This document shows, piece after piece, positions 3,401 through 64,000 of a stretch of 64,000 nucleotides of DNA. This DNA comes from Candidatus Multivoradales bacterium (GTDB lineage: Bacteria > Acidobacteriota > Thermoanaerobaculia > Multivoradales > JAHEKO01). Under the pieces are notes generated by a model, which did not search any database, was not told the origin of the DNA, and saw only the letters and a program-made list of their open reading frames with translations. Position numbers and translations under genes: made by a program. The stretch lies in the NCBI GenBank assembly GCA_965223155.1, contig CBDCVR010000013.1, positions 800,001 to 864,000 of the forward strand. Direction: 5' to 3'. Each line of letters opens with the position of its first letter. The stretch's first letter is position 1.

Positions 3401-3785
3401 CAACGCCACTCCCAAGACCGCCGAAGACCTGGCCGAGCGGATCCGCGCCGGCATCGCCGGCCATCGTTTCGAGCTGGGTCCCGAGACCTCGGTCGAGCTG
3501 AGCTGCTCGATCGGCTTCGCCTCGTATCCCTTTCTGCGAAAGTTCCCGCGTGCGTTCACCTGGGAACAGGTGGTTGCCGTCGCCGACCGCGGTTTGTACT
3601 TCGCCAAGAAAAGCTGCCGCAATGCTTGGGCCGGAATCTCCGAGAACCACCGGGTGGACACCGTCCACCCGTCCTCGCTGCTCCACCAGATTAACCACGA
3701 GTTGGAGCAGTTGGTCCAGCTCGAAGTCGTCGAGCTCAGGACCTCGATCGAAGACGAGGCGGAGCTCGTCTGGGGCTGGACCTAG
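474..3785 (+). CDS. Membrane-anchored diguanylate cyclase with periplasmic beta-propeller (Reg_prop repeats) and Y_Y_Y sensor
   Basis: Signal peptide; many 'D..G.LWVGT.GGL' repeats; YTNLDPGRYTFRVKASN; PPPWRAWWAY TM segment; DLDGFKQVNDTYGH...RDAD-TVIRW-GGDEF (intact A-site and RxxD I-site). ATG 474 preferred over the track start at 423. Confidence 0.92.
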   Translation: MPRHLRWSRWAATLVLLALATAASAQERRIPFDHVGLQEGLPHSTVNAIVQDDLGFVWLGTQDGLVHWDGNAFTAYRHEPGNQGSLSNNWVWTILKDSTGRLWIGTNEGGLNLWEPATRSFVQYRNDEMDPASLSNNRVRALLEDRNGRIWVGTESGLNVFDPIAGRFDRYFHDPSNPDSLSHNQIRTIFQDRRGSIWVGTNGGGLDRLDDAGGVFTHFRHDPDDPASLSRDRVRVVFEDRSDQLWVGTYEGGLNRFDPATGAFTRFAEEPGRSGSLLGNRVTSIHQDSNGVLWVGTFSGLNEWLPERQAFTRYAHNPADPASLSDNRVMTIFQDRGGVLWVGTQGGISKWNAVTGSFSGFRHDPAAPDRSLISNTVNALAEDAQGRLWIGTYEGLDVLDRGTGTVTHHLRDDAVPGRLRDDRVMSLHVDRGGTLWVGTFEGGLHRRRADGRFRNYRHDPDDPASLSRDAVTAILEDSQGVVWAGTYGGGLNRVKADGSGFIRYRNDPDNVTSIGNDKVLALLEASDGALWVGTDGGGLSRLDRRQGTFTRYRSNSDAESSLGADTIFSLAESSDGTLWIGTQGGGLSRWLKQDRIANRVRFKTYTTSDGLPNDVVYAILEDESGSLWLSTNDGLARFDPATETFRKYGTTHGLLSTEFNFGAFLKTRDGEMLFGSDQGVNFFQPSRIHANDHAPPVVLTSFLKFNQEERLEIPTPELRELYLTHKDYVVSFEFAALDFSAPERNSYAYMLEGFDTGWNEVGNLNRATYTNLDPGRYTFRVKASNNDDLWNENGVALAINVAPPPWRAWWAYLAYLAAALAVLLAVVRRQSAIRVREIQQRRELEDQVALRTTELAERNQELESAIDRLEHASVTDALTGLRNRRYLVNNIDADLALVDRHHENLKRRPKVAAEGPPPDFLFLLFDLDGFKQVNDTYGHAAGDLILLQVTEILRGACRDADTVIRWGGDEFLIVARNATPKTAEDLAERIRAGIAGHRFELGPETSVELSCSIGFASYPFLRKFPRAFTWEQVVAVADRGLYFAKKSCRNAWAGISENHRVDTVHPSSLLHQINHELEQLVQLEVVELRTSIEDEAELVWGWT

Positions 3786-4708
3786 CCCCCGGTCTCTTTA
3801 CCGCCAATCCGGTCGACAATGGCTCCGACCGCCTCGGGCAGCGCGTCGAGACTGTCGGGCAGCACGAGCTCCACGGCGTCAACGGCGGGGGCGGCTCCAG
3901 TGAAGAGATCGAAGGCCGCCGCCCTGAGCCATTGGGCAAAGAGACTCGATGCCGTGAGGTTGGCGAGAATCCGGGTCACGGCCTCACTTGGCGCCAGCGG
4001 CCGGACCGTGGGCGCCGACACGTCGGGCCTGCGTCGCGGAAAGACGATCGCGCCGAGCGGCGCGCTGGCCGGTTCGAGCGGCTGCTGGTCCGGCCCCATC
4101 TTGAGCTGGGGAAATCGCGGCAAGACCTTCAGCCCCGGCCCGGCCCCCGCCAGAATCACCTGATCGTCGGCCAACCTCGTGTGCCCCGCAGCTTCGGCAA
4201 CACGCGCGAATGTGGACTTCCCCGCCCCGCTCTCGCCGGCTGCGGCGACCACCCGATCCCCGATCTGAAAGGCCGAGGCGTGGAGGCTCCAGCGCCCACA
4301 GGCGGCCAGGGCCAGGGTCAGACCGGGGCCGAGCGCGGCGTACCGAGCCTGATCCTCGGACCGGGGGCCCTCGATCGTGAGATCCACCGCAGGAGCCGAG
4401 AAGCGGCATCGGAGCCACTGCCGACCCTCGAGCTCCAGCCTGGCCCCCTCGTCGCCTGTGTGGATCAGGTACCGGGTCCTCCGGCCGGCCAGCCAGTTAC
4501 GCCCCGCGAGGGTCTCCAGCATGGACCGGTGCTTCCCCGCCGGAGCGTCCGGCTTCGAAAACTCGACGCCGAACAGCGTGAACGGCGTCAGCTCGCGCAC
4601 CGTGCCTGTGGCGCTCACGGTCAGTCCGGCCAGGCCGTAGTGGCGCCAGCGCGGCTCTCCGTCTTCCTGAAACCAGAGACGTACCGTCTCTCCGTCCGGC
4701 ACCTTCAT
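3782..4708 (-). CDS. HPr-kinase-like P-loop kinase (lasso/RiPP-associated kinase), cluster 1
   Basis: LHASA...GESGAGKST...LADD motifs; ATG at 4708 overlaps the cyclase stop (TGATG). Confidence 0.8.
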   Translation of the reverse strand: MKVPDGETVRLWFQEDGEPRWRHYGLAGLTVSATGTVRELTPFTLFGVEFSKPDAPAGKHRSMLETLAGRNWLAGRRTRYLIHTGDEGARLELEGRQWLRCRFSAPAVDLTIEGPRSEDQARYAALGPGLTLALAACGRWSLHASAFQIGDRVVAAAGESGAGKSTFARVAEAAGHTRLADDQVILAGAGPGLKVLPRFPQLKMGPDQQPLEPASAPLGAIVFPRRRPDVSAPTVRPLAPSEAVTRILANLTASSLFAQWLRAAAFDLFTGAAPAVDAVELVLPDSLDALPEAVGAIVDRIGGKETGG

Positions 4709-6378
4709 CAAGCCAGCTCCCAACCGTGACGGCCGCGCCAGAGCTCGAAGGACGCGCATCGCCAGAGCAGCGCCTTTTCCGCCTCCGACGAACGGGGCCC
4801 AACGGCCTCGACGGCTTCAGGGCGGACGAACTCCGGCCAAACCGCCCGCCTCCGGCCCAGCAGCTCGGCAATCGGTCCGGACTCGCGTTCGAAGACTCCC
4901 CGATCGAAGAGCGGCGAAAGATTGGCGGTGGTCTGGTTCCGGACCACCGCGTCCGGCAAGCGGCTGGTCATCGCCCGGCGCATCAGATCCTTGGCGCAAC
5001 CTGGCCTGGCGATCAGAAAGCTGGGGAGCGCCAGCAGGAGCTCGACGAGATCCGGGTCGAGATACGGCGAGACTACACGGACCCCGGCGTGGGACGCGTG
5101 CACCGCCTCGATCGGAAGTCCCCTACGCTCGAGATCCAGATAGGGCCGCACCAAGCGCGCGCGCGCGCCGGTGTCCTGCCCATCCTCCGGTGCCCGAGCC
5201 GATCCCGAGCTCGCGGCCACCCCCGGGCGGAGCCAAGCCCGGCTCGCGCGCGATGCAACCCGAGCCATGCGCCCGGCCGGACTTCCGATGCGGCCGATGG
5301 CTCCCAGCGCCTGACGCGGCCCCCGGCCACGGGCGATCTGGAGGATCGCGGCGGCGGCGCGGGCGAAGTGTCCGTGGCGCACGAGGTCCCGTACCAGGAG
5401 CTGCTGTACGCCGCGGTAGAGAGCGTCGGCCGGTCCCCCGTTCCAAAGCACGCCGACGCCCGCTTCGGCCGCCCTCCGGTACAGGCGCTGCTTGAGGCCC
5501 CGATAGGGATTCTCCTCGGGATGGCCCGGTTCGAGGCCGTAGGCGTCGGGGTCGGCAAGGGGCCAGCAGTCATCTCCGGAGACGCGCACGGCCGTGAGCC
5601 TAAGGCTCTCCACGACCGCGTCGATACGCTCCCTTTCGTCGCACGTCCTCAGCTCGTCGAAGATCCAGGAAGCAGCCACCGGCCGGCGCCCGGCCTGCTC
5701 AGCGTACTCGGCGGGCGCGGCAGGTTCGAACCGGGCCGCGGCGGCCGCCGCCAGGGCTCCTGAGTCGATTCCCCCGCTCAGCATCAGGCCAAGCTCACCG
5801 TCCGGCGGCGTCCAGCGCGCCGCCGCCGACTCGAGGGCCTTCCAGAGGCGCTCGGCGGCCTCTTCCGGCGAAAGGTCGCTCAGCGCGGCCGAGTCGGGCG
5901 GCTGGCCGCACGTCTCCAGCCGGCCGGGCTCGTCCGCCAGACCGCTCGGATCCGGCCGTGGGCCAGGCGGCGATCCGACGGGAAGCCGCACCCGGCAGCC
6001 GGCCGGCACCTCGAAGACTCCTCGGAAATGCGTCCGGCCCACCGTGGGGCTCTCGAGCGCGAAGAAACGAGCGAGCTGACCTCGATCCAAACCCGGCCGC
6101 ACCGGCAGGGTCGCCAGCAAGTCACTCAGGACCGACGACGAATAGAGCCGGCCCCCGGCCCGCGCGTAGTAGAGCCCCTCGGCACCGCTAGCGCCTCGCG
6201 CCAGGGTAACTCCTTCACCGTCCGGGTCCAGCCGAGTCCCGGTTTCGGAAAGAGCGCCGGGTTCCCGAAGCCGCCGCCGCCCGGGATGCGGCTCGGAGGC
6301 GGACGTGTCGACCCCGAAGCCATTCCTGGCCTGCATCCGGGTACCGGTGGCGAGGTCGAACACCGCCGAGCGCGACAT
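4708..6378 (-). CDS. Asparagine-synthetase-like lasso cyclase (macrolactam synthetase), cluster 1
   Basis: PP-loop LSGGIDS; NGGPADALY acidic motif; SPYLDPDLVELLLALP...KDLMRRAM; no N-terminal catalytic Cys; directly downstream of a lasso-type precursor. Confidence 0.82.
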   Translation of the reverse strand: MSRSAVFDLATGTRMQARNGFGVDTSASEPHPGRRRLREPGALSETGTRLDPDGEGVTLARGASGAEGLYYARAGGRLYSSSVLSDLLATLPVRPGLDRGQLARFFALESPTVGRTHFRGVFEVPAGCRVRLPVGSPPGPRPDPSGLADEPGRLETCGQPPDSAALSDLSPEEAAERLWKALESAAARWTPPDGELGLMLSGGIDSGALAAAAAARFEPAAPAEYAEQAGRRPVAASWIFDELRTCDERERIDAVVESLRLTAVRVSGDDCWPLADPDAYGLEPGHPEENPYRGLKQRLYRRAAEAGVGVLWNGGPADALYRGVQQLLVRDLVRHGHFARAAAAILQIARGRGPRQALGAIGRIGSPAGRMARVASRASRAWLRPGVAASSGSARAPEDGQDTGARARLVRPYLDLERRGLPIEAVHASHAGVRVVSPYLDPDLVELLLALPSFLIARPGCAKDLMRRAMTSRLPDAVVRNQTTANLSPLFDRGVFERESGPIAELLGRRRAVWPEFVRPEAVEAVGPRSSEAEKALLWRCASFELWRGRHGWELA

Positions 6379-6437
6379 CGTGCCCGAGCCTACCTTGCGC
6401 CTAGGTCCGACCGGACCTGTCGCGACCTGCCAGCCCG

Positions 6438-6644
6438 CTAGCCCTGGAACGGAGGGTTGAAGGCAAACGGATTGCCCGAGTCACCGACGCCGGGAGAGCC
6501 GCCCAAGGTCAGGCTGGCCAGCGAGCCGTAGCGCACGAGAGTCGGCTGGCGATAGGGCCTGCGGCCTTCGAGCGGCCGAAGTTCCGCCCCAGTCCGGTGA
6601 GCCGATTGCCGGCGCACCCGCGAACGCTCGCTGGCCTTGTCCAT
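6438..6644 (-). CDS. Lasso-type RiPP precursor A1 (68 aa); predicted core GGSPGVGDSGNPFAFNPPFQG
   Basis: MDKASERS...RRPYRQPTLVRYGSLASLTL|GGSPGVGDSG...: YxxPxL motif, leader Gly, Thr(-2), Gly1, Asp8. ATG at 6644 overlaps the stop of the 2754-aa gene; it is the 3' end of track ORF 6438..7142. Confidence 0.88.
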   Translation of the reverse strand: MDKASERSRVRRQSAHRTGAELRPLEGRRPYRQPTLVRYGSLASLTLGGSPGVGDSGNPFAFNPPFQG

Positions 6645-9600
6645 CAGGGCACGATTGTCATCGTCGGGTCGCCGAGAAGCGTCCATCCGAGAATAACATC
6701 CAAGCGACCCGGATCGCTCTCGGCCAGATCGCGCTTGGCCTCGACCACCGCGCCGCCAAGGCGAGCACCGGGGCTCGCCAGGCGGTCGAACACGCGACGT
6801 CCCAAACGCTGCTCGGAGAGGGCCTCGGTCAAGGTCGCGGCACCCAAAACCGCCGCCGCGCCCGTATCGGCCTCCAGCAGAAGCCGGTTGCCCAAGGTCT
6901 CGTAGGTCGGCAGCACGTGGTAGGTGTTCCAGCAGCCCCACTGGGTCACGACGGTCGGCTTGCCGCGGTTCTCGAGCCGATCGACGTCCGACGAGCGGAA
7001 GAGGCCGCTGAAGCTCCAGACGGTCAGGCCGGAGTGCCCAAAGTAGCTGGTGATTGCCGGGCCCTGGCCGATCTCGCGCACGAGCGCCTCGCGGGCATCT
7101 GTAAGCGGCATCTCGTCCAGATAGACCCGCTCGAGGGACCAATCGGAACCCAGGAGCGCCCCCATGGCGTCGCTCTTCTGTCCGAACGAGAACCCAGTCG
7201 GCGCGTCCCGCTTGTCCGCGGCTAGAACCGCGGTCAGCTCGCCGCCGTCGTAGAGCAGCGTCTTGTCGATCACCGCGGCCAGCTCGTCGAGAGTCCGCAC
7301 CGGCCAGCGGCCCACGGCCACCTCGGGGATGAGGTCCCCGTCCACGTCGCCGTACAGGGGATCCACCGGCGCGTAGCGGACGATCGCGTCGGTCTGGAGA
7401 TACGGAGTCGGGACGAAGCTCATCGAGCCGACACCCAGATGATCGAAGTAGTCGTAGGTGTCGCCGCCCACCAGCAGCAGATACCGTGTCCCGAGGCTCT
7501 TGTACGCGTCGCGGACGTAGCTTCGAATCGCCTCCGGATCCACAATGCCATTACTGTAGGCAGCGTAGACGTCGTCCACGTCGACGGTCCGGACCGCCAA
7601 GCCTTCACCGCGGCGACGGCTCTCCCAGCGGCCCAGGCCGTCCAGGAAGTCGGCGTGCGCGATCACGAGCACGTCGGCGGGCGCGTCGCCGAGATCGCTG
7701 GCGGCGCGAGCGGCCTCGATCGCCGGAACGCGGATCGAGCCGGCTCCGACCGTCCAGTACTCGGCATCGGCGGCACCCAGTCCCGAGAACGCAGCAGCGT
7801 AGCCTCCCAAACCGTCGGCCACCGTCGCCGCCTCGAGACGCGCCAGCGTGCCGGCGGTTCGTCCGTAGGCCACGACGTCGGTCGAAGCAAAGCCGCGCAC
7901 CAGGAAACTCCGGCCGCCGGACGCGAAGCTCAAAGCGTCGGCCCGGGCCACGAAGTCTCTCGGGTACCTGACCGTCAGGTGGTCGTAGTTAACAAGATCG
8001 AACTGGGCGCCCGTGTCATGCGGCAATAGCAGCCTCATCGTGTTGCCGGCCGGCGCCAGGAGGGCGTCGCTCAAGACCGCCGAGATCTCGGGTTGGTAGA
8101 GCCCGTCGAACCATTCCTCGGCAACCAGGCCGCCGTTGACCTCGACGACCAGATGGTGGTCGGGTGCCTGCGGCAGGTTCGTGACGCCGTAGGCCGACAC
8201 CTCGAGGGCCACGTCGGCGGCTCCGGGCAGCCAGTTGTCGAGGTCAAACGTCACCGACGTCTCGACAGGCTTCGTAGTCGCGAGCAGGCGCCGGTCGTAC
8301 CACGGATCACCGGTCGGCGAGGCGAAGTTGTACTGGCGCTCGACCTCGACCTTGTGGGTCTCGAGGTAGTAGGGCTCAGCGGCGCCCGCGCCGGAGTACG
8401 GCTCGATCTCCGCCCGCAGCGCCCGGTCCCGATTCACGCTCAGTCGATAGACGTTGGTCCGGGTGTAGAGGCTGTCGTCGACCGGCTCGCCCACGAACTC
8501 GAGAGACGAGCCGGGACCGAACGGACCCTCTCCGGACACCCAGAAGGGGACCGGCTCACCGCCGCTGGCCAGGCTCAGCCAGTCTCCTCGAATTCCCTGG
8601 AGGCGCACTCCCGCGGCTGCCAGATCTTCGTAGGTGACCCGGTAGATACCCGCCTCGGAAACCTTGAAAGTCGCCAGCTCGTCACCACGGCCCGGCCGGC
8701 CCGAATTCGAGCCACTCGAGCCTCCGTTCGAGCGCAACGCCCTGCCGCCGAACTCGATCGCGCCTCCGAGATCGGCCGAACCGGCCTCGGGCAGCACGCC
8801 GGCGTTCCGCCGCGCGGCCTTGCCCGCTTTCCGGCGCGCCTTGGCGTCCCGGATCTTGGCCCAGGCAACAGGTTGCGCGGAAACCACCTCCGACCCGGCG
8901 GCTTCATCCGCGTAGAACGGACCGTGGTGTCGAATGACGCCGTTGATATCCACGTCCTCCAGAAGGAAGGTATCGCCTGCGACTCCGGCGGCCGAGAACT
9001 CGTACACCTGCGGCTCGAGCGAGTCCACGACGTGGGACGGGATGAGCTCGTCGTTCAAGCGGCGCAAGCCGTCATCTTCGAGCGCGTAAAGATTGAAGCC
9101 GAGATTCCCGACCTCGGTCGAGGTCATCCAGCGGAAGTCCACCGATCCGCGTCCGTGGGCTTCGAAGTAGGCCAGAGTCACCGGCGTCGTGGTCACGCCC
9201 CCGTTCCAGAAGCCGAAGTCCTGATCGGTGACGTTCGAAGAGACCAGAGTCACCGGCTGGACCCCGCCGGTCCCGGCTTGGGTGGTCTGGACGAAGCCGT
9301 CGACCAAGGTGCCCTCGCTGTCGGCGTACACCAGATAGTCGCCCGGCGGCAGGTTGTCGAAGCTGTAGGTACCGTCGATCGCGGTCACGGTGGTCGCGAC
9401 CAGGGGATCGTCCGGATCGATGACTCCGTCGCCGTCCAGATCCTGATAGAGGTACACGGTTACCGAGGGCACCACCGGCTCGAGTCCGGTTCCCGCGAAG
9501 GAACCGTTGGCATCGCCGTCCTCGAACACGGTTCCGGAGATCGAGAGCGCGCCGGTCGGAAGGACGAAGCCGAAGTCCGCGGTGAAGTTGGACGAGTTCA

Positions 9601-53465: not shown

Positions 53466-53550
53466 TTGCCGGCTTCTAGTGCGGAGGAGCGCCGCCGAAT
53501 TCGAGTCGAGCAACGATACACCGATCTGGCCTGATGTGCAAAGGAAACGA

Positions 53551-53844
53551 TCACAGCGGCTTCACTTCCAGAAGTCCCTGGTCGGCGAGCTCGGTGACCA
53601 AGGCGACAACGTCTCGCCGGAGGCGCTCCGCCGTCACGTCGTACTCTGCCATGGCGCTGCGCTCGACCTCCCCTACCGGCTGCCCGTCGGCCAACGCGTT
53701 CCACAGAAACGTCCCGACCTCATCCAGACCGAAGTACTGACCGGAACCCAGATGCAGCAGGACGGATTCGCCTCCGAGATCTCGAAACAGAACGTCATCC
53801 GGAACCCGGAAGCGGGTCTCGGGCGCGAGCAAGTCCTCAGCCAC
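53551..53844 (-). CDS. PqqD-family RiPP recognition element (lasso B1/E protein)
   Basis: VLFRDLGGESVLLHLGSGQYFGLDEVGTFLW...EYDV...DVVALVTELADQGLL; GTG 53844 inferred (ATG 53880 possible). Confidence 0.92.
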   Translation of the reverse strand: MAEDLLAPETRFRVPDDVLFRDLGGESVLLHLGSGQYFGLDEVGTFLWNALADGQPVGEVERSAMAEYDVTAERLRRDVVALVTELADQGLLEVKPL

Positions 53845-53888
53845 GCCGCCCTCGACAGCCGATCTGGTGGCCGCTAGCATCCCAATCT

Positions 53889-55031
53889 ATGGCTCCTAGA
53901 AAACAACGAGTCATGACCGCTCCCGGCTCTCCGCCGCCGAGAATGCCACATCCCGCGGCCTGGCTGGCAAATCTGGTCGTGTTCGGACTCGTGTTGGTCG
54001 TCTGGTGGGTCCAAGGCTCGAGCCCGCAGCTCTACTACCGGATGGTCCAGGAGGACGGCGCTCTGGAGTGGTCTACTTTCTGGGCCTTCTTGCTGGCAGG
54101 AATTGCCTTCGGATACTCCGCAGTCGCCGCAATCCGGAAAGAAAAGAAGCGCTCCGCGTCGCTGTTCCTCCGGCTGGACCTCTTGGTCGCGATCTTCTGC
54201 TTGTTCGTAGCGATGGAGGAGATCTCGTGGGGTCAGCGCCTCTTCGGCTACAGGCCGCCGGCCTACTTCTTGCGCGAGAACTTCCAGCAAGAGCTCAACG
54301 TCCACAACGTCCTTGGCACCGACCTTCGCAAGTTGGCGCTCAAGGCCGTCGTTCTCGGCTACGGAATCGTGCTGCCGGCACTCGGCGCCCTGCGTGCTCC
54401 GCGCCGGCTCACCCGGAAGCTCGGACTGACGATTCCACCAGCCGCCCTGATGCCGGCATTCCTGGCTACGTTCATGGTCTACCAAAGCTATCCCTGGAGG
54501 TTTTCGGGCGAGCTCGTCGAAGCGATGCTCGGACTGGGTTTTCTGGCGACGGCTTCCGTTGCCGTCCCGGAGTGGTCCGGAGTTCGAGCACTGGCCAGTG
54601 CCATGGCCTTGACGGCGATTCTGGGCCTGGCGTCGTTCGCCTATTCTAGCGTTAGCGGCAACGACGACCCGACCCGAGTCCAGGCTGCCGCCGCCGAGAT
54701 CGAAGCCCTGGCCACCGATTTCTCGCCCGGAGGGCTGCCCATCTCTCGATGCAGCGTTCATAAGCGGGTCTTTTCTTGGGCCGAGAAGTACGGAGCGGTC
54801 GAGCGGCTCCGTCGCGGCAGCTTCGCCTCGCTGATCAACCGGGGACTGCCGGAAGAGCGGGTTGAGTACTTCATCGACCCCTGGGACAGTTCGGTCTGGC
54901 TGCGGCACAAATGCGGACCCGGAACCGAGATCGCCTTCCTCTACTCATTCGGCCCGAATCGCCGCCGCGACTCCACCGAGTGGGAAATCCGCGGCGACGA
55001 CATTGGTACCGTCTTCTTCTCCCGTCCGTAA
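53889..55031 (+). CDS. Polytopic membrane protein with C-terminal GspG/pseudopilin-like head
   Basis: About 7 hydrophobic segments; EEISWGQRLFG...QELNVHN; tail DPWD...LYSFGPN...GDDI. Confidence 0.65.
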   Translation: MAPRKQRVMTAPGSPPPRMPHPAAWLANLVVFGLVLVVWWVQGSSPQLYYRMVQEDGALEWSTFWAFLLAGIAFGYSAVAAIRKEKKRSASLFLRLDLLVAIFCLFVAMEEISWGQRLFGYRPPAYFLRENFQQELNVHNVLGTDLRKLALKAVVLGYGIVLPALGALRAPRRLTRKLGLTIPPAALMPAFLATFMVYQSYPWRFSGELVEAMLGLGFLATASVAVPEWSGVRALASAMALTAILGLASFAYSSVSGNDDPTRVQAAAAEIEALATDFSPGGLPISRCSVHKRVFSWAEKYGAVERLRRGSFASLINRGLPEERVEYFIDPWDSSVWLRHKCGPGTEIAFLYSFGPNRRRDSTEWEIRGDDIGTVFFSRP

Positions 55032-55105
55032 CAGAGCGCCCGCCGCCTCGCCCTGAGAAAGCTTAGGCGCTTCGGCCTTGAAAGCGATCTCCTCGGCCAG
55101 CCCTA

Positions 55106-58100
55106 CTACAGCGAGCACAATGCGCCGCCGTGCTTGCTCGATCCCGAGAGAACCACGAAGTCACCGGAGATCAATCCCGGACCAATCGGCTGCGAGCAAC
55201 TCGTGTGGATCATCGTATTGAGGGCTCCCTCGACATAGAGTGTTATTTCGGTACCCAGCGTGCCACTGAAGCTCTTCTTTCCGGCAGCCGGACCGTAGAC
55301 CGTGAAGATGTCGCCCGGCTCGAGATAGCCCTCAAAGAGCACGTCGGTCGAGCCACCGCGCCGGCCGTCGACCCGCACGACGCCGGCCGTATCGCCAACG
55401 TACATCATGGTCAGGACGCTGACCTTGCCCTTGCACTCGCCGCAGTCCTGGTAGCCGAAGTCGAGGTCCAGCTGGTTCTCACCCGGTGCCAGGATGTAGG
55501 TCGTCTGGTTGTCGAGCGTTCCATCGAAGTCGTAGGTCGGGAAGAAGCCCGCCGGCAGTGTCGAGGTGTCGATCACGACGGTGTACTCGCCGCTGGGCAG
55601 AGTCTCGAACAGGTAGGAGCCGTCGCCCCCGGTGGTATCCGTCGCAATCTCATTGCCATCGGCATCCAGCAGCCGAACGACCACGCCGTTGATTCCCGGC
55701 TCAGCCGCATCCTGAACGCCGTCGCCGTCCAGATCCATCCAGACCCGGTCGCCGATCGAACCAACTTGCCGGTAGCCGAAATCGACGTCGTCACGGGTCT
55801 CGCCAGGCATGAGAGAAATCGTGGTCATGTGGTCGAGCGTGCCGTCCAGATCGAACGTCTGGGACGAGCCGCTCGGCAAGCCGTCGGGCACGACCACGAT
55901 TGTGTAGTCGCCCGTCGGCAGGTTCGAGAAGGTGTAGTTGCCATCTCCGGAGGTGACCTGCGTATCGATCACGTCTCCGGTCACAGGATCCACCAGCTGC
56001 ACGGTCACGCCGTTGATGCCCGGCTCGCCCGGATCCTGGACACCGTCGCCGTCCAGATCCTCCCAGACCCGGTCGCCGATCGAGCCCAGACGCTGGTAGC
56101 CGAAGTCGATGTCGTCACGATCCGACTCGAGGCCTCCCACGAAACCGATCGAAACGTCAGTGGAACCATCCAGGGTTCCGTCCTGCTCGAACGTCTGCAC
56201 CACGCCGCTGGGCAACGTCGTACCGTCGATCATGACGTTGTAGTCACCCGGGGGCAGCGACGTGAAGCTGTAGAAACCGTCGTCGTCGGTGGTCGTATCG
56301 GCCACGAAGTTGCCGTCACCGTCGTAGAGCACGACCCGGACGCCCGGGATCCCGGGCTCCCCGGCATCCTGCACGCCGTCACCGTTGTCGTCGTACCAGA
56401 CGTAGTCGCCGATCGAGCCCGGAGGCACCAGACCGAAGTCATACGTCAGGATGTTGGCATCGACCACCGTGTCGGTAATCGAGTTCGCCGTCGTGTAGCT
56501 GTACCCAGAGAGGGCTCCTTGGTCGATGTAGCCAAAGCTCTCGTCAACGACGTCGGCACCGGCGACCACCACGAGCCGCTCGTAGTCGAGGCCCGCCTGG
56601 GTCGTCCCGACAAGGCCGGCGAGGGCCGAGTTCATGTCGGTCAGCTCGACACCGTAGCCGGTCGAGCGCAGACCGCAGAACTGAATCACGCCGTCGGCGT
56701 CGGAGACGTCGCTCGCAAGGACATCGCCGCCACCCGAGGTCAGAGTCGCGGTAACCCCGGCGATGGGCGTGTCCGAACCGCCCGGAGCCGGCTCGTAGAG
56801 ACCATCGGCATCGGCGTCGTACCAGACCCGCTCACTGATGCAATAGCGCTCGGCAGGAGCCAGGGCCTGGTACCCAAAGTCCGCGGCGAGATAGACATCG
56901 CCCGCGGCCACGTTGATGTTCTGAGTCGGCCCCAACGGGGTCGTCAGGGTCAAGTCGGCAACCAGTCCGGCCGCGTCGATCACGACGACCGTGTAGCAGC
57001 CGGGAGCCAGGTCGCCGAAGAAGTACGAACCATCGGGCCCGGTCTTGGTCAGCGCCAGGCTCGTGCCCGGATCCGTGCAGTCCTCGAGACTCAAGGTCAC
57101 GCCGCCGATGCCGGCCTCTTCCGGCTCACGCACGCCGTTGCCGTTGTCGTCCAGCCAGACGAAGTCGCCGATCGCGGCCAGAGTCGGATCGATGGTGTAG
57201 CCGAAGTCCAGATCGTTAAAGGTCTCATCCGTGGTGATCGTGCGCGATACGCTGGGATTCGTGCCTCCGCTCAGCGTCAAACCGGACGGTAGCGTGCTCT
57301 CATCGACCTGGGTGCAGTACGTGTCGGCCGCCAAGTTGTCGAACCAGTAGAAACCGTCCGCATTCGTCTGCGTGGCCTCCTTCGACACCAAGCTGACGCA
57401 ATCCACCAGCCGCACCGTCACGTTGCTAAGTCCGGGTTCGCCACCGTCCTGGGCTCCGTCCCCATCCACATCTAGCCACACCCGGTCGCCCACCGCGCCC
57501 GTCGGAACCGGCGCGAAGTTCTCATCCGCTACCTCGACCGTGTAGGTCCCCGGCACCACGTCATAGAAGTACATGCCGTCGGCGTCGGTCACCCGCTGGC
57601 CGATAACGGTACCGCTCGAGTCGAAAATGTTGACCACCACGCCCGGAATCCCGTCTTCGCCCGGATCCTGGGTGCCGCTCTCATCCAGATCCAGCCAGAC
57701 CGTGTCGCCGATCAGGTAGGGATCCGGAGGACAGACGGGGGCGCCGTTGATCAGGCCGCAGGCGACCTGCTCGAAACGCCAGAAATTACTGTTGCTGAGA
57801 TCCAGTCCCCGCACCTCGACCTTCCACAGCCCGGAGGGCAGGAGCCCACCACCCGCGACCAGATGGTCGGGATTGTCGGCGGCGTCGGTCGAGATCAAGA
57901 ACTGCTCCCATTCCCGCTGCCCGGAGGGGTTGTCGTTGTCGTAGACGTTGGCGTTCGGGCCTCGCACCGCGTAGCGCACGCACGGGCTCCTGAGCACCAC
58001 AGGGTTAGTGCTGTCGTCCTCGGGGTTCCCCGCTCCCTGAGCGCCCTCTGCCACCGCGTCGGGCCCCGCGAAAGGCGGAATCCCCGAGCTGTTGAAATCG

Positions 58101-59059
58101 TCCGTGTCCGAGCAGGCCTCCGCAACGCCGGACGCCGTCAGGCTGTTGCCGTGATCGAAGTCCCCGTCCCAGATGCGAAGCGCCTGAATGTTGAACGGCA
58201 CGTCCAGAAAGAAGGCGTACATGCCGTCGTAGGTGGTCGGCGCGTTCTGGTGGTCGAACGGCACGCCCGGGTTGTTCAAGATGAACTCCGCCAGGGTCGG
58301 GTAGACGACGAGCTGCTCGTTGTTGCCGAGGCCGAAACCGCCCTCGAAACCGAACTGGGCGCTGAAGACCGCCAGCGGAACGTCCGCGAAGACCTTGTAG
58401 TTCGAAACACCTTCGCAGCCCGCCGGCGCGGGATCGACGTCACACTCGGGAGCGTCCTTCAGATCGATGACGACGTTGTAGAAGGCGGTGTCGCTTCCAG
58501 GCAGCGCGGCATCGGGGTTGCCGTCGCCGTCACCGTCGATCTCGACGAAAACGTCCCAGAAGTCGTTGTTGGGCATCCGCGCCGGACTCGCGGTCCAGAC
58601 ACCGGCCGGATCGGCCAGCGGATTGTCCTCGTTGCCGAACCACTCCCCGACCATGTCGGCGGGATTGGTATTGCCGATGCGCGTGGGATCCTCGAACATC
58701 CGGACCCGGATCGCCCGGGTGCCTTCGTCCCAATGGCCCTGGGTCGGAGCGAAACAGGTTGCGTCCACCGACGGCCAGTCCAGCACGCACGGATCGCCGG
58801 TGTCGCCATCGAACATCCGGAACAGAAACGTGCCGCCCGCCTTGTCGACCGGAACCGAGAGGCCGACCGAAGTGGTCTGGTCGCTGAGCCCGGCAAAACC
58901 CGAGACCGCGGACAGGAACTTGGCGTCGGTAACGTCCTCGCTCGGGAAAGCCGTAAACGGTCCCGCCGTGAGCTGGGCCGAGGCCGGAGCTACCGCCACT
59001 GCAATCAGCAGCGCGGTCGCCAGCGTGATCGAAAAACCCTTGTACATTCTCGTCGTCAT
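55106..59059 (-). CDS. Secreted SdrD-B-like repeat protein (1317 aa) with Cys-containing C-terminal domain
   Basis: Signal peptide ...APASAQ; 7 'GDxVWxDxDGDG' repeats; terminal CGECKGKV...IHTSCSQPIG...C domain. Confidence 0.85.
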   Translation of the reverse strand: MTTRMYKGFSITLATALLIAVAVAPASAQLTAGPFTAFPSEDVTDAKFLSAVSGFAGLSDQTTSVGLSVPVDKAGGTFLFRMFDGDTGDPCVLDWPSVDATCFAPTQGHWDEGTRAIRVRMFEDPTRIGNTNPADMVGEWFGNEDNPLADPAGVWTASPARMPNNDFWDVFVEIDGDGDGNPDAALPGSDTAFYNVVIDLKDAPECDVDPAPAGCEGVSNYKVFADVPLAVFSAQFGFEGGFGLGNNEQLVVYPTLAEFILNNPGVPFDHQNAPTTYDGMYAFFLDVPFNIQALRIWDGDFDHGNSLTASGVAEACSDTDDFNSSGIPPFAGPDAVAEGAQGAGNPEDDSTNPVVLRSPCVRYAVRGPNANVYDNDNPSGQREWEQFLISTDAADNPDHLVAGGGLLPSGLWKVEVRGLDLSNSNFWRFEQVACGLINGAPVCPPDPYLIGDTVWLDLDESGTQDPGEDGIPGVVVNIFDSSGTVIGQRVTDADGMYFYDVVPGTYTVEVADENFAPVPTGAVGDRVWLDVDGDGAQDGGEPGLSNVTVRLVDCVSLVSKEATQTNADGFYWFDNLAADTYCTQVDESTLPSGLTLSGGTNPSVSRTITTDETFNDLDFGYTIDPTLAAIGDFVWLDDNGNGVREPEEAGIGGVTLSLEDCTDPGTSLALTKTGPDGSYFFGDLAPGCYTVVVIDAAGLVADLTLTTPLGPTQNINVAAGDVYLAADFGYQALAPAERYCISERVWYDADADGLYEPAPGGSDTPIAGVTATLTSGGGDVLASDVSDADGVIQFCGLRSTGYGVELTDMNSALAGLVGTTQAGLDYERLVVVAGADVVDESFGYIDQGALSGYSYTTANSITDTVVDANILTYDFGLVPPGSIGDYVWYDDNGDGVQDAGEPGIPGVRVVLYDGDGNFVADTTTDDDGFYSFTSLPPGDYNVMIDGTTLPSGVVQTFEQDGTLDGSTDVSIGFVGGLESDRDDIDFGYQRLGSIGDRVWEDLDGDGVQDPGEPGINGVTVQLVDPVTGDVIDTQVTSGDGNYTFSNLPTGDYTIVVVPDGLPSGSSQTFDLDGTLDHMTTISLMPGETRDDVDFGYRQVGSIGDRVWMDLDGDGVQDAAEPGINGVVVRLLDADGNEIATDTTGGDGSYLFETLPSGEYTVVIDTSTLPAGFFPTYDFDGTLDNQTTYILAPGENQLDLDFGYQDCGECKGKVSVLTMMYVGDTAGVVRVDGRRGGSTDVLFEGYLEPGDIFTVYGPAAGKKSFSGTLGTEITLYVEGALNTMIHTSCSQPIGPGLISGDFVVLSGSSKHGGALCSL
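55771..56613. repeat. At least 843-bp near-identical direct repeat, copy A (copy B at 63158..64000)
   Basis: Constant offset of 7387 nt; only about 2 substitutions seen by eye. Confidence 0.92.
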
Positions 59060-59079
59060 CGTCCTGTCTCCCCGATCGA

Positions 59080-59304
59080 CTATGCCGTGTCGCGTTTCCG
59101 GCCGAGCGCGGACTCCGAAGTTGCGCTCTTGCCGCTGTCATCCAAGCCCGCAGTCAGGAGCTCGGCGATTCTCGAACCGTCGCCCATGAAGCGCTCTTCC
59201 CCGGTCCGCAGGTCCCGCAAGAAAAAGCGCGGCCCTTCCTCGGTCCCCGGTTCGCGCCAAACGCGAACCAGATAGGAGGTGCTTGCTTGGGGTGTCGTTT
59301 CCAT
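59080..59304 (-). CDS. Small hypothetical protein (74 aa, SYLVRVWRE motif)
   Basis: METTPQASTSYLVRVWREP...LRDLRTGEERF; ends 20 nt before the SdrD gene, whose GGAG RBS lies in the gap. Confidence 0.55.
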   Translation of the reverse strand: METTPQASTSYLVRVWREPGTEEGPRFFLRDLRTGEERFMGDGSRIAELLTAGLDDSGKSATSESALGRKRDTA

Positions 59305-59746
59305 CTCGGCGTTCTTTCTTCGATGCGTCAGTTGGTCATGCCACTGTCGGGGCCGAACTCGGTTCTTCATCGGATGCAAGCATGCCCGGAACGCGTCAGG
59401 GCAGCGTCAGGATTACATCGACATATCGAGATATGCGAACTGGCATTACAGAAATTTGCCGACCACCTCGGGCAGTCCGCCACTGGAAGCACCTTCCTTC
59501 GGCTGAGCTCCAGCTCGACGGCCAGGCGACCAGCGACAGCCGCCGCTTGGGCCAGGATCCAGGTACCCGACACCCAGTTTGCGGCCGCGCCACCCGTTCC
59601 GATCCGACAGCCGGACCAAAGGTCCAGGTCGAGGCGAGACCGCCGCGTCAGAAGTCGGCCAAGAGACGGCGTCGCCTTGCCACTGCCGATCCGGGGCCGC
59701 CGCGTTGCGGGCCACTACCTCAAGAACAGCCGCAACCGTCCTGCCC

Positions 59747-59869
59747 GCGGCACAAATGCGGGGCCGGAACCGAGCCTTCCTCTACTCAATCGGCCCGAAT
59801 CGCCGCCGCGACTCCACCGAATGGGAGATCCGCGGCGACGACATCGGTACCGTCTTCTCGCGCCCGAAG
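59747..59869 (+). pseudogene. Frameshifted remnant of the 3' end of the 53889..55031 membrane gene
   Basis: Aligns to 54902..55031 (AFLYSxGPNRRRDSTEWEIRGDDIGTVF) with a 4-bp deletion (gagATCGcc to gagcc) and a 3-bp deletion. Confidence 0.85.
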
Positions 59870-59873
59870 GCTG

Positions 59874-62800
59874 CTAGGCCCCTCCGTGCTCAATGCAGAG
59901 CTCGTAGTCGCCACGGCCGCTGTAGGACCGAACCTTCCACTTGTAGTAGCCAGCGGTTCCGTTGTACTGGATCGATTCGTCCGAACCGGCATGCGTGGCG
60001 TAAGCCACTCGCTCCCAGGTACCCGCCGAGCCGTTCCACTTGTACAAGTAGAGGTCGAAATCGGTGCCGGCGTCCGCCGAGAGGACGCCGCTCTGAACGC
60101 CTCCGTTGCTGTAGTAGTAGGTGCCGTCCGGCTGCCAGTCATAGTCACCCGAACCGGACAGGTAGCCCGTGTGATGGCTACCAGAGCAGCCTTCGCAGTC
60201 GATCACGATCTCCACCCAATCCAAGCAGAAGAGCTCGTCGGCACCGCCGTACTTGTTGGTCACCCGGAAGCGAATCGTCGTCTCGTCCGAGATGAAGGCT
60301 GAGATGTCGATCGACTCGGTGCCCTCGGCGGAGCCCGAGATGCCGTCAATAACCTGGAGAGTGGTCCAGGTGACGCCGTCGGTGCTGATGTCCAGAGTGA
60401 CTTGGTCGTCGGTGTCCACCGAGTTTCCCGCGATCCAGCGGAAGCTCAGGTTTGCACTGGTGGCGCCAGAGAGGTCGGCCGTACGCTGGACGCTCGGCTG
60501 CGTTCCGGAATCGGGATAGTCGTCCAGGGTCAGCAGCCCGTTGTGTACCTGGGCCTGGCCCGAAGCGGCGCCACCGCCGTTCGGATCCGACTCTTGCCAG
60601 GGTCCTGTCCAGGTCAGGCTGCCGTCGTTCCGCGAGTACGAGCTATCGGTCGAGAACGTGTCTTTGTAGTTGCCATCGACGCAAGAAGTCTCGCAATCGA
60701 TCGCGATGTGAACGTTGTCCACCTTGAAGTTCTCGTCCGTGCCGCCGCCGTAGTTGGCCGCCACGCGGAAGCGAATCCGGGTGTTGGCGGACGCGTAAGC
60801 GGTGATGTCGAAAGTCTTGGTTCCGCTCTGAGCGCCACTGAAACCGGTGAAGTCGTGCAGCGTCGTGTAGGACTGACCGCCGTCGGAGGAAATCTCAGCA
60901 ACCACCCAGTCGGAGGTGTCAACTCCACCGTGGGTCTCCCAGTAGAAGCTCAGCGTCGCGGAAGACGCGTTGGCCAGATTGACCTCGCGCGCGGCGCTCG
61001 GCTGGGTGCCGGTATCGGGATAGTCGTTGAGCACCAGGCGGTTCCAATTGACCGTGACGTTGCCGGCATTGGGACCGGCTCCGGCCACGTCGTTCTCGAT
61101 CCAGCTCGACGCCCAGCTCAAGCTGCCGTCGTTGTTCGAGAAGGACACGGAGTTGAACTCGTCCCGCACCGTACCTGGAACGCACTCGCCGTCCTCAGCC
61201 CGGTAGCCGAAGTCCACGTCCGTCCGATCCTGGCCAGACGCCAGACCGACCGAGGTCGTGTCGTCGAGTGTGCCGTCCAGGTCGAAGGTCTGTTCGAAGC
61301 CCTCGAGGGCGCCGCCAGAGGCGAAGTTGGAGCTGTCGATCTCGACCGTATAGGTACCGGCCTGGAGACCGTCGAAGGTGTAGAAGCCGTTGCTGCCGGT
61401 GGTCTGCATGGTGACACCGCCGGAGCCGTCGATCAGGTTGACCTTGACGCCCGAGATCCCGGGCTCGCCGTCATCCTGAACTCCGTCGCCGTCGAGGTCC
61501 TCCCAGACCCGGTCGCCGATCGAACCCAGCTCGTTGATAACGACCGTGGAGGGATCGCTGTCCGAGACCTGGGTGCCGCCGGCGGTGGTCCCGCTGACCG
61601 AAGCCACGTTGGTAAAGCCAGCCGTGACGTCGGTCACGGTGCAGGTGTAGCCGGTCGAAGCCCCTGCCGCCAGGTCGCCGATCACCTTGTCGCAAACCGG
61701 CGCCAGCGGATCGCTAACGGTTACGCCCGTCAGATCCACGTCGCCGGTGTTGGTCACGACGATCTCGAACGTCACGTCGCTGCCCTCGTTGAAGGTCCGG
61801 CTGTCGGCGCCTTCCGCCTGCTTGCGGATGTCGATCGACGGATCCAGAACCGTAACGGTCGAGGGATCGCTGTCGTTGACTTGCATCCCGTCGGGACCGA
61901 TACCGGTCACCGAGGCGATATTGGTGAACCCGGAAGTGACGTTCTGGACCGTACAGCTATAGCTGAAGGTCGCGCCGGGGCCCAGATCGCCGATGTTGCG
62001 ATCGCAATCGGGCGCCAGCGGATCGGCCACGACCACGTTGCTCAGGGGCACGTTACCGGTGTTGGTCACCACGATGTCGAAGGTCACCGCGCTACCAGAC
62101 TCAAACGAGCGGCTGTCGGGACCCTCCGCCTGCTTGCGAATGTCGATCGATGGCGTCATATCGAGCGGACACAGCGTGCCACCGTGCTTGCTTGAGCCGG
62201 ACAGAACGGTGAAGTCTCCGGAGATGAGGCCTGGACCAATCGGCTGCGAGCAGCTCGTATGGATGGTCGTGTTGAACTGTCCGTCGACGTAGAGATGAAT
62301 ATCGGTACCTACCGTGCCGTCGAAGCTCTGCTTGCTCGAGGGTAGACCGTAAACCGTGAAGATGTCGCCCGGCTCGAGATAGCCCTCGAAGAGGACGTCG
62401 GTTGAACCGCCGCGCTTGCCCTCGACCCGGACCACCCCGGCCGTGTCACCGGTATACATCAAGGTCAGGACGCTGACCTTGCCCTTGCACTCACCGCAGT
62501 CCTGGTAGCCGAAGTCGAGATCCAGCTGAATCTCGCCCGGACCCAGGGAGTAGGTGGTCTGGTTGTCGAGCGTGCCGTCGTAGTCGAAGGTCGGGAAGAA
62601 GCCCGCGGGGAGCGTCGAGGTGTCGATCACGACGGTGTACTCGCCGGGGAGAAGGTTCGTGAACTTGTAGGAACCGTCGCCCTCGGTCGTATCTGTCGCG
62701 ACCTCGTTACCGTCGGCATCCAGAAGCCGCACGATCACGCCGTTGATGCCCGGCTCACCCGCGTCCTGCACACCGTCACCGTCCAGGTCGTTCCAGACCC

Positions 62801-64000
62801 GGTCGCCAAGCTCGCCCAGCGCACGGTAGCCGAAGTCGGCATCGGTGACGACGTCACCCGCGCCCAGTACGACCTGGGTGGAGTGGTCGAGCGTGCCGTC
62901 CCGGTCGAAGGTCTGCTCGAGACCCTCGAGGGGACCACCCGGAGCAACGTTTGACGAGTCGATCTCGACCGTATAGTTGCCCTCCGGCAGGTTGCCAAAG
63001 GTATAGATGCCATCGGCACCGGTGGTCAGCATGGTAACGCCGCCGGAAGAATCGATCAGATTGACCTTGACGCCCGGAATGCCGTTCTCGCCGGCATCCT
63101 GGACGCCGTCACCGTCCAGATCCATCCAGACCCGATCGCCGATCGAGCCCAGACGCTGGTAGCCGAAATCGACGTCGTCACGGGTCTCGCCAGGCATGAG
63201 AGAAATCGTGGTCATGTGGTCGAGCGTGCCGTCCAGATCGAACGTCTGGGACGAGCCGCTCGGCAAGCCGTCGGGCACAACCACGATTGTGTAGTCGCCC
63301 GTCGGCAGGTTCGAGAAGGTGTAGTTGCCATCTCCGGAGGTGACCTGCGTATCGATCACGTCTCCGGTCACAGGATCCACCAGCTGCACGGTCACGCCGT
63401 TGATGCCCGGCTCGCCCGGATCCTGGACACCGTCGCCGTCCAGATCCTCCCAGACCCGGTCGCCGATCGAGCCCAGACGCTGGTAGCCGAAGTCGATGTC
63501 GTCACGATCCGACTCGAGGCCTCCCACGAAACCGATCGAAACGTCAGTGGAACCATCCAGGGTTCCGTCCTGCTCGAACGTCTGCACCACGCCGCTGGGC
63601 AACGTCGTACCGTCGATCATGACGTTGTAGTCACCCGGGGGCAGCGACGTGAAGCTGTAGAAACCGTCGTCGTCGGTGGTCGTATCGGCCACGAAGTTGC
63701 CGTCACCGTCGTAGAGCACGACCCGGACGCCCGGGATCCCGGGCTCCCCGGCATCCTGCACGCCGTCACCGTTGTCGTCGTACCAGACGTAGTCGCCGAT
63801 CGAGCCCGGAGGCACCAGACCGAAGTCATACGTCAGGATGTTGGCATCGACCACCGTGTCGGTAATCGAGCTCGCCGTCGTGTAGCTGTACCCAGAGAGG
63901 GCTCCTTGGTCGATGTAGCCAAAGCTCTCGTCAACGACGTCGGCACCGGCGACCACCACGAGCCGCTCGTAGTCGAGGCCCGCCTGGGTCGTCCCGACAA
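59874..64000 (-). CDS. Large SdrD-B-like repeat protein (5' end outside the window) with DUF11-like domains, two jelly-roll modules and a C-terminal PPC-like domain
   Basis: SdrD-B repeats; IHTSCSQPIG domain; VTFDIVVTNTGNV repeats; terminal GTDFDLYLYKWNG...GYYKWKVRSYSG (pre-peptidase C-terminal-like); frame open to the window edge. Confidence 0.85.
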   Translation of the reverse strand, partial: VGTTQAGLDYERLVVVAGADVVDESFGYIDQGALSGYSYTTASSITDTVVDANILTYDFGLVPPGSIGDYVWYDDNGDGVQDAGEPGIPGVRVVLYDGDGNFVADTTTDDDGFYSFTSLPPGDYNVMIDGTTLPSGVVQTFEQDGTLDGSTDVSIGFVGGLESDRDDIDFGYQRLGSIGDRVWEDLDGDGVQDPGEPGINGVTVQLVDPVTGDVIDTQVTSGDGNYTFSNLPTGDYTIVVVPDGLPSGSSQTFDLDGTLDHMTTISLMPGETRDDVDFGYQRLGSIGDRVWMDLDGDGVQDAGENGIPGVKVNLIDSSGGVTMLTTGADGIYTFGNLPEGNYTVEIDSSNVAPGGPLEGLEQTFDRDGTLDHSTQVVLGAGDVVTDADFGYRALGELGDRVWNDLDGDGVQDAGEPGINGVIVRLLDADGNEVATDTTEGDGSYKFTNLLPGEYTVVIDTSTLPAGFFPTFDYDGTLDNQTTYSLGPGEIQLDLDFGYQDCGECKGKVSVLTLMYTGDTAGVVRVEGKRGGSTDVLFEGYLEPGDIFTVYGLPSSKQSFDGTVGTDIHLYVDGQFNTTIHTSCSQPIGPGLISGDFTVLSGSSKHGGTLCPLDMTPSIDIRKQAEGPDSRSFESGSAVTFDIVVTNTGNVPLSNVVVADPLAPDCDRNIGDLGPGATFSYSCTVQNVTSGFTNIASVTGIGPDGMQVNDSDPSTVTVLDPSIDIRKQAEGADSRTFNEGSDVTFEIVVTNTGDVDLTGVTVSDPLAPVCDKVIGDLAAGASTGYTCTVTDVTAGFTNVASVSGTTAGGTQVSDSDPSTVVINELGSIGDRVWEDLDGDGVQDDGEPGISGVKVNLIDGSGGVTMQTTGSNGFYTFDGLQAGTYTVEIDSSNFASGGALEGFEQTFDLDGTLDDTTSVGLASGQDRTDVDFGYRAEDGECVPGTVRDEFNSVSFSNNDGSLSWASSWIENDVAGAGPNAGNVTVNWNRLVLNDYPDTGTQPSAAREVNLANASSATLSFYWETHGGVDTSDWVVAEISSDGGQSYTTLHDFTGFSGAQSGTKTFDITAYASANTRIRFRVAANYGGGTDENFKVDNVHIAIDCETSCVDGNYKDTFSTDSSYSRNDGSLTWTGPWQESDPNGGGAASGQAQVHNGLLTLDDYPDSGTQPSVQRTADLSGATSANLSFRWIAGNSVDTDDQVTLDISTDGVTWTTLQVIDGISGSAEGTESIDISAFISDETTIRFRVTNKYGGADELFCLDWVEIVIDCEGCSGSHHTGYLSGSGDYDWQPDGTYYYSNGGVQSGVLSADAGTDFDLYLYKWNGSAGTWERVAYATHAGSDESIQYNGTAGYYKWKVRSYSGRGDYELCIEHGGA
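63158..64000. repeat. Near-identical direct repeat, copy B (runs to the window end)
   Basis: Matches 55771..56613. Confidence 0.92.

Follow-up and report, generated by a model that had tools for sequence, protein, structure and literature searches.

The DNA considered here is a 64,000-nt stretch (hereafter, the window) of Candidatus Multivoradales bacterium, an acidobacterium of the Thermoanaerobaculia (contig CBDCVR010000013.1, positions 800,001 to 864,000 of the forward strand), with a G+C content of about 66% across its length. It carries two sets of genes for lasso peptides, which are peptides made by ribosomes and modified after translation (RiPPs), and in both sets a giant secreted protein with SdrD_B repeats, a lasso precursor, a cyclase and a kinase are found together. 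This layout had been pointed out in an earlier inspection of the letters alone (the sequence-only reading); every part of it was recovered where that reading had placed it, and the coarse gene order and strand are alike at the two loci, called locus 1 and locus 2 in Table 1. The analysis makes it probable that these are two independent class-II-type lasso peptide gene sets, the first belonging to a large family linked to a Peptidase_C25 module and the second separate from it. In the family of locus 1, the lasso peptide is predicted to be encoded directly behind a giant secreted protein which ends in a PorU-like C25 peptidase/transpeptidase.

The genes of locus 1 are tightly packed. Following the direction of transcription, the junctions are ATGA between the 709-aa gene and the giant gene, TGATG between the giant and the precursor, a gap of 57 nt, and TGATG between the cyclase and the kinase; at the second of these, the ATG of precursor 1 has one base in common with the stop codon of the giant. 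Given these junctions, the five genes are read as one translationally coupled operon. Promoter and terminator scans returned the same counts as shuffled sequence and were uninformative on the operon limits. The first gene of the series is a truncated tandem partial copy of the head of the giant (its first ~670 residues): residues 26-668 of the giant are 82% identical to the 709-aa protein, the corresponding DNA repeats lie at 13138-14812 and 15150-16821, and the shorter protein terminates within a DUF11 domain, its stop overlapping the giant ATG.

Table 1. Features of locus 1 (3782-17034) and locus 2 (50437-64000), in window positions
Locus	Feature	Position	Strand	Basis of assignment
1	709-aa secreted DUF7507/DUF11 protein	14905-17034	-	Pfam
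1	2754-aa giant: signal-peptide-like N-terminus, DUF7507, DUF11, 10 SdrD_B, C-terminal Peptidase_C25	6644-14908	-	Pfam, NCBIfam
1	PorU-like Peptidase_C25 module, giant residues 2147-2754	6647-8470	-	Pfam, NCBIfam, PDB profile match
1	Lasso precursor 1, 68 aa: 47-aa leader and 21-aa core GGSPGVGDSGNPFAFNPPFQG	6438-6644	-	lasso_leader_L3
1	Lasso cyclase 1, 556 aa	4708-6378	-	Asn_synthase, E 4.4e-21
1	HPr-kinase-like protein 1, 308 aa; start = ATG overlapping cyclase stop	3782-4708	-	weak HprK_rel_A/B
2	SdrD_B protein A: 5 SdrD_B, DUF7467, DUF7507, DUF11; 5' end beyond window	59874->64000	-	Pfam
2	Membrane-gene 3'-end remnant, 95% identical	59774-59858	+	DNA repeat family D11
2	SdrD_B protein B, 1317 aa: signal-peptide-like N-terminus, 7 SdrD_B, C-terminal DUF7467	55106-59059	-	Pfam
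2	380-aa multi-pass membrane protein	53889-55031	+	hydrophobic stretches
2	PqqD-type RiPP recognition element (RRE, B1)	53551-53880	-	PqqD, E 2e-18; lasso_PqqD models
2	Lasso precursor 2, core GGGGLPSDGLGSDPPASGT	53298-53465	-	lasso_leader_L3
2	Lasso cyclase 2, 583-aa open reading frame, TTG start	51537-53288	-	Asn_synthase, E 3.3e-37; NF033535, 143 bits
2	HPr-kinase-like protein 2, 347 aa, very divergent	50437-51480	-	Hpr_kinase_C, 25.9 bits, below cutoff 33.3

The Pfam match to Peptidase_C25 covers residues 2414-2751 of the giant (E 5e-60), and the region around it resembles PorU, the sortase of the type IX secretion system (T9SS). The NCBIfam model for the T9SS sortase PorU gave 127.6 bits over residues 2147-2752, and five other giants from related loci gave 98-174 bits, with profile positions 106-732 covered, against a model cutoff of 420. 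When a profile of the module was compared with the PDB, PorU (6za2) was the best match (E 3.5e-24), with gingipains R and K ranking lower. Over the last ~600 residues the window giant is 35-63% identical to 13 other aligned modules, across phyla (the frameshifted module of locus L016 is omitted from this alignment, A4). Furthermore, His2625 and Cys2659, in the numbering of the window giant, are invariant in 14 of 14 modules; their counterparts in the alignment are a His and a Cys of PorU and of Kgp, in the latter the catalytic residues. All complete giants start with a signal-peptide-like segment and end in LLGDP. The likeness to SdrD is confined to the B repeats, which form the stretches counted in Table 1; as a whole-protein match SdrD fails (NF012181, 262 bits against a cutoff of 2500).

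Both precursors belong with lasso leaders by the NCBIfam model lasso_leader_L3 (22.6 bits for precursor 1 and 23.1 for precursor 2; cutoff 19), and both have the leader motif, Gly1 and Asp8. The likenesses between them that had been noted earlier (Y-17, P-14, L-12, G-8, T-2, G1, D8 and a Pro-Pro near the C-terminus) were confirmed; the leader motif they have in common is that of a generic lasso leader and does not denote a special tie between the two loci. A precursor identical to the 68-aa precursor 1 occurs in a public protein set (P0330), in which a profile search recovered 564 clusters of the family; where the source names its members, the only name is "lasso RiPP family leader peptide-containing protein". 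Among the best 120 of these 564 clusters, with 87 distinct cores, the ring is fixed: Gly1, Ser3, Gly5, Asp/Glu8 and Ser9 are found in all 120, Pro4 in 119 and Gly10 in 112. The tail is variable, total core length in the same 120 ranging from 16 to 50 residues. The same precursor type, G-(G/A/S)-S-P-G-x-G-(D/E)-S-G with a variable tail behind it, stands beside the kinase in 20 of the 25 related loci described below (the precursor alignment, A3, omits L024, whose start is ambiguous). A C-terminal Ser was found neither in the 22 cores compared here nor in the 120 best database cores, the two window cores ending in Gly and Thr. Some members have long cores of 30-50 residues with Pro/Gly-rich tails (e.g., L005, 3104-3346), far above the usual lasso lengths.

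Both cyclases score above the Pfam cutoff for Asn_synthase and contain SGGxDS; among NCBIfam models, the one for lasso cyclases, NF033535, matches them best (84.7 bits for cyclase 1 and 143.4 for cyclase 2, against a cutoff of 525). Cyclases of the related loci start with MSG, MSA or MGA rather than MCG and so are missing the N-terminal Cys of true amidotransferases, as expected of lasso cyclases but not of true glutamine amidotransferases. Among 5.8 billion proteins, cyclase 1 has only two good relatives (47% and 43% identity), and the same search returned no relative above 30% identity for cyclase 2. The public gene call for cyclase 2 (P0016) is only 382 residues long, against 583 in the open frame, which looks like a start-codon error because the additional N-terminal part also matches lasso cyclase models. 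The cyclase tree unites all 17 locus cyclases with cyclase 1 and four database proteins in a single clade, with a support of 100 (Shimodaira-Hasegawa-like approximate likelihood ratio test, SH-aLRT). Cyclase 2 lies across a 99% split, among generic database matches, so that of the two window cyclases only the first falls within the C25-linked clade.

Kinase 1 belongs to a family of proteins of ~300 residues with the conserved blocks LHASA, GxSGAGKST, ADD and PRFPQLK, of which 4321 representatives reach E<=1e-3 and 494 also reach E<=1e-10. Its matches to HprK-related NCBIfam models are weak, HPr kinase chains of the PDB are matched at E ~3e-5, and Pfam Hpr_kinase_C is below cutoff or absent for the window kinases. 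Kinase 1 carries the conserved His, the P-loop Lys and the Asp-Asp pair (alignment A1). Kinase 2 has Gly in place of the first Asp of the pair, and sits on a long unresolved branch of the kinase tree. Kinase 1 groups with its counterparts in the thermoanaerobacular loci L002 and L003 with an SH-aLRT of 99, as does cyclase 1. The N-terminal domain of the kinase was also considered as a hidden RRE and rejected (hhalign probability 0.1%). A plasmid collection contained no match to either the kinase or the C25 module. Identity between the two loci is 28% over 414 aa for the cyclases and 34% over 89 aa for the kinases. These values, together with the position of the cyclases on either side of a split supported at 99-100%, exclude a recent duplication of the locus, in agreement with the sequence-only reading, and the two sets are old and independent.

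The conservation of locus 1 was assessed in 25 loci that a single scan, run with ten kinase sequences of one kinase subgroup, returned from species-representative genomes. The loci were chosen by means of two peptide patterns, include several close relatives, and come from genomes other than that of the window; their hosts are Chloroflexota, Acidobacteriota (including Thermoanaerobaculia) and Pseudomonadota (Gammaproteobacteria). Neighbour content was determined by Pfam scans of 300 picked open reading frames and by a six-frame scan with local hidden Markov models (HMMs), which were built from the same loci, so that the rows used for training do not yield independent scores. In the GC-rich loci L007, L008, L012, L016 and L025, genes were recovered only through the latter scan.

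A protein ending in Peptidase_C25 adjoins the lasso genes in 14 of the 25 loci, 13 of them detected by Pfam (L002, L003, L004, L006, L007, L008, L010, L012, L013, L015, L020, L021 and L025) and L016 by the local HMM only. In 13 of the 14, the giant is the gene immediately upstream, on the same strand, with its end 0-240 nt from the cyclase, precursor or kinase that follows; the giant of L016 is convergent and frameshifted. When the loci with both a cyclase and upstream sequence are considered, 12 of 14 have a C25 giant; in L024 the giant directly after the precursor is cut by the contig end but has the same type of stalk, and L005 has none. The internal order of the lasso genes varies by lineage (giant-A-C-K, giant-C-A-K-B2-B1, giant-K-B1-B2, where A is the precursor, C the cyclase and K the kinase), with the link to the giant kept throughout. 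The Thermoanaerobaculia loci L002 and L003 match locus 1 gene for gene, including a convergent Reg_prop-GGDEF gene and an EAL gene. The layout of locus 1 thus exceeds chance, in that the neighbourhood recurs in other genomes.

SdrD_B repeats were found in only five of the 25 loci (L001, L002, L003, L006 and L016), the stalks of the other giants being made of GEVED, P_proprotein, DUF7933, DUF11 or DUF7507 domains. Because SdrD_B is present in five loci as against 14 for C25, the conserved partner of the lasso family is the C25 module and not SdrD_B. The sequence-only reading had proposed a recurrent adhesin-linked RiPP module: a lasso module linked to a giant secreted repeat protein does recur across phyla, as that proposal foresaw, whereas the recurrent element is the peptidase, and only locus 1 fits, since the SdrD proteins of locus 2 have no C25, cyclase 2 is outside the clade and the core differs. 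In its original form, with both loci as instances of a single SdrD_B-linked lasso module, the idea could draw on the similar coarse order and strand, on the membership of kinases 1 and 2 in one family, and on the fact that kinase 2 is most identical (32%) to the kinase of L016, which adjoins a giant with both SdrD_B and C25. That last pairing is a flagged long-branch join, the core of precursor 2 is without the family motif, and a convergent gene interrupts any operon with the SdrD genes at locus 2; added to the domain counts and to the position of cyclase 2, these points make the original form quite unlikely.

Several side observations concern the neighbours of the family. A Reg_prop/Y_Y_Y-GGDEF gene is convergent to the kinase in the window (1-3785), L002 (10891-16451), L003 (10928-16500) and L019 (2468-5239), and an EAL-domain gene is also present at that flank in the window, L002 and L003. 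Because the Reg_prop-GGDEF gene recurs in three Acidobacteriota loci, the cyclic di-GMP genes are conserved in this lineage as neighbours of locus 1. In Lysobacterales (L007, L008, L012, L013 and L015), a ThrE-family membrane gene, a putative Thr/Ser exporter, lies downstream of the lasso genes, and it is the only recurrent transporter-like neighbour among the loci. Tandem C25 paralogs occur as well, with a second C25-ending gene just upstream of the giant in L012 (3-284), L013 (2-289) and L015 (1-423). Four Rhodanobacteraceae loci (L011, L014, L018 and L022) have a two-component system followed by the precursor, the kinase, B2 in L018 and L022 but not in L011 and L014, and PqqD; neither a cyclase nor a C25 giant was found within 10 kb of them.

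Leader processing is incompletely encoded in the window. No RRE was found at locus 1 or in the orthologous loci L002 and L003, and a six-frame scan gave the RRE of locus 2 as the sole PqqD match in the window. As locus 1 has none of its own, its RRE would have to act in trans, the locus 2 protein being the only candidate in the window; the two leaders have their motif in common. For the B2 peptidase, there was no Transglut_core3 match in 43 window open reading frames and no match to the B2 HMM in six frames of the 64 kb; by analogy with known lasso systems, this enzyme must presumably be encoded elsewhere in the genome. The earlier view that each peptide has dedicated enzymes therefore stands for the cyclase and the kinase, of which each locus has its own, and not for leader processing, with a single RRE for two loci and no B2.

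One might suppose that the C25 module itself is the missing leader peptidase and replaces B2 at loci such as locus 1, given that its His and Cys are intact and that B2 was found neither in the window nor in L002, L003, L004 and L006, all of which have a C25 giant. This role is rated very improbable because B2 and a C25 giant occur together in eight of the 14 C25 loci (L007, L008, L010, L012, L013, L015, L020 and L025). In lasso biosynthesis, leader removal precedes ATP-dependent cyclisation and takes place in the cytoplasm, and the giants, with their signal-peptide-like N-termini, would be in the wrong place for it. Moreover, locus 2, L011 and L014 have neither B2 nor C25. Clusters without a linked B2 peptidase do occur in this lasso family.

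For the maturation of the peptide and its encounter with the C25 module, we infer, by analogy with characterised systems, the following course. An RRE, in the window that of locus 2, would bind the leader; an unlinked B2 peptidase would cleave after Leu-1; the cyclase would link Gly1 to Asp8 to give an 8-residue ring; and the HPr-kinase-like enzyme would modify the peptide at Ser3 or Ser9 rather than at a C-terminal Ser. Should the enzyme be a peptide kinase, the phosphate would probably go to Ser3 or Ser9. The mature peptide would then, most probably, act together with the C25 module of the giant, by first choice as a dedicated ligand or inhibitor. That the two work together is suggested by the fact that ring and module stay fixed across phyla while stalk and tail change. 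Stated in full, the proposal is that a widespread lasso family, phosphorylated on a ring or ring-adjacent Ser, may be the dedicated partner of a PorU-like peptidase/transpeptidase which tips giant surface proteins, and that it may inhibit, regulate or be ligated by this protease; it is put forward tentatively, with somewhat less than even confidence.

As a second choice, the PorU-like module would take the mature peptide as its substrate, either trimming the variable C-terminal tail or transferring the peptide, in the manner of a sortase, onto a surface acceptor. The closest relative of the module, the type IX secretion sortase, would suit such a role, and so would a fixed ring carrying cores of 16-50 residues, of which the very long ones suggest later trimming. 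The tails of the best 120 of 564 clusters show no conserved cleavage motif, no exporter is conserved, the PorU scores of 98-174 bits are far from the cutoff of 420, and the hosts are not Bacteroidota, so that this role is somewhat unlikely.

The proposed partnership between peptide and protease has to be weighed against a number of points. Gene order is the sole link between the two. The 25 loci form a small sample, biased by the search pattern, and represent only about eight independent lineages; in seven of them (L005, L009, L011, L014, L017, L018 and L022) C25 was not seen in the flanks, and three others (L001, L019 and L023) are cut by contig ends. The lack of B2 in the 64-kb window weighs on the production of either peptide. 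The invariant Ser3 and Ser9 could reflect the needs of folding or of the cyclase instead of phosphorylation. Finally, no exporter gene is conserved in the loci, and the giants are signal-peptide-like while the lasso enzymes are cytoplasmic; since the giant looks secreted and an exporter for the peptide is not conserved, how the two meet is the weak point of the ligand and substrate ideas alike.

The first of these points, and the seven loci without C25, would also fit giant and lasso genes that are merely co-inherited or co-regulated neighbours without a joint mechanism, or that are adjacent by chance, and the system is indeed split in places, as in the Rhodanobacteraceae arrangement A-K-(B2)-B1 without a cyclase. 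On the other hand, same-strand genes that abut or overlap are found in about eight lineages of three phyla despite a shuffled internal order, and the C25 module and the peptide ring remain constant where the stalk domains vary. Mere neighbourhood is therefore regarded as unlikely, and the partnership of lasso peptide and C25 module is retained as the preferred reading.

Locus 2 is a separate lasso system: it has an RRE to itself, and both its core and its cyclase set it apart, the latter falling outside the clade. The core of precursor 2 does not contain the core motif of the C25-linked family, and no C25 was found in its SdrD proteins by Pfam or by the six-frame scan with local models. The membrane gene of this locus is convergent with the gene of SdrD_B protein B and divergent from the RRE gene, starting 8 nt from the RRE start; because it lies between them on the opposite strand, no single transcript can cover both the SdrD genes and the lasso genes of locus 2. 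No Pfam or NCBIfam family matched its product. The genes of SdrD_B proteins A and B have stretches in common that are 78-100% identical (55110-57000 against 62164-64000), some of them at 93-100%, and the 3' end of the membrane gene (54933-55017) is matched at 95% by the remnant just after SdrD A (59774-59858). The unit of membrane gene and SdrD gene has therefore undergone a segmental duplication at locus 2, and the membrane gene travels with the SdrD genes. The presence of lasso genes beside SdrD_B genes at locus 2 is a single observation, for which there is no comparative support. A horizontal origin of locus 2 was considered from its G+C content at third codon positions (0.74-0.78, as against 0.80-0.88 elsewhere), a gap too small to conclude. 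The 33 kb that separate the two loci contain housekeeping genes, including nuo, 2-oxoacid:ferredoxin oxidoreductase, leuB-like, xerC-like and recN genes; among them is a fused NuoC/NuoD, with the 30-kDa and 49-kDa Complex I domains in a single open reading frame (28136-29842).

The locus 1 lasso family with its C25 giant is large and, apparently, undescribed. No link of lasso peptides with C25, gingipain, PorU or PF01364 was found in the literature, subscription papers and supplements being outside the scope of the search, so that a prior mention is possible; the single co-mention of gingipain with lasso peptides was a reference-list entry. Lasso clusters of other Acidobacteria, with a different kinase type, appear in a soil-metagenome study (PMC9064862). 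Research treats most lasso peptides as free antibiotics or enzyme inhibitors, and little is known about their native roles; with a lasso family that keeps its place beside one protease module in three phyla, there is a concrete and testable native partner. The family would likewise extend lasso kinases beyond the rule based on a C-terminal Ser, as well as give a lead on the role of PorU-like C25 modules outside type IX secretion. If the proposal is true, a RiPP would for the first time be seen hard-wired to a surface protease.

Like lasso clusters of the canonical split-B type (A, B1/RRE, B2, C, D), both loci have the leader motif, Gly1, Asp8 and a cyclase, and locus 2 has the RRE; unlike them, there is no B2 or transporter in the 64 kb, and locus 1 has no RRE. 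The combination of lasso precursor, Asn-synthetase-like cyclase and HPr-kinase homologue is that of the clusters with PadeK (paeninodin), ThcoK, SyanK and PsmK (pseudomycoidin), and the nucleotidyltransferase, B1 and B2 that usually accompany kinase-bearing lasso clusters are present as well in L001. The His, P-loop Lys and Asp-Asp of kinase 1 resemble the His-Lys-Asp-Asp motif of lasso kinases as given in PMC9266682, and on our reading these columns probably correspond to that published motif. Those lasso kinases that have been characterised act on the linear precursor, phosphorylating its conserved C-terminal Ser (PMC9266682, PMC8498205). The present family differs from the known kinase-bearing clusters in that its cores have no C-terminal Ser, there is no ABC (ATP-binding cassette) exporter, and a PorU-like giant is attached.

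On the side of the giant, the likeness to the MSCRAMM (microbial surface component recognizing adhesive matrix molecules) adhesin SdrD concerns the B repeats only, with no match to the whole protein (A domain, SD repeats, cell-wall anchor). With PorU and the gingipains it shares the C25 catalytic domain, the region that precedes it and the aligned His and Cys. Unlike PorU, the module is fused at the C-terminus of a repeat protein of 1200-2750 aa and tied to a RiPP operon, its scores remain well below the PorU cutoff, and it occurs in Acidobacteriota, Chloroflexota and Gammaproteobacteria, groups not known to have type IX secretion. In the staphopain-staphostatin operons, a small product without a signal peptide is encoded directly downstream of, and coupled to, the gene of a secreted cysteine protease. 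Locus 1 resembles this arrangement, with the difference that its inhibition of the protease is hypothetical and that its small product is a RiPP which needs several enzymes for its maturation.

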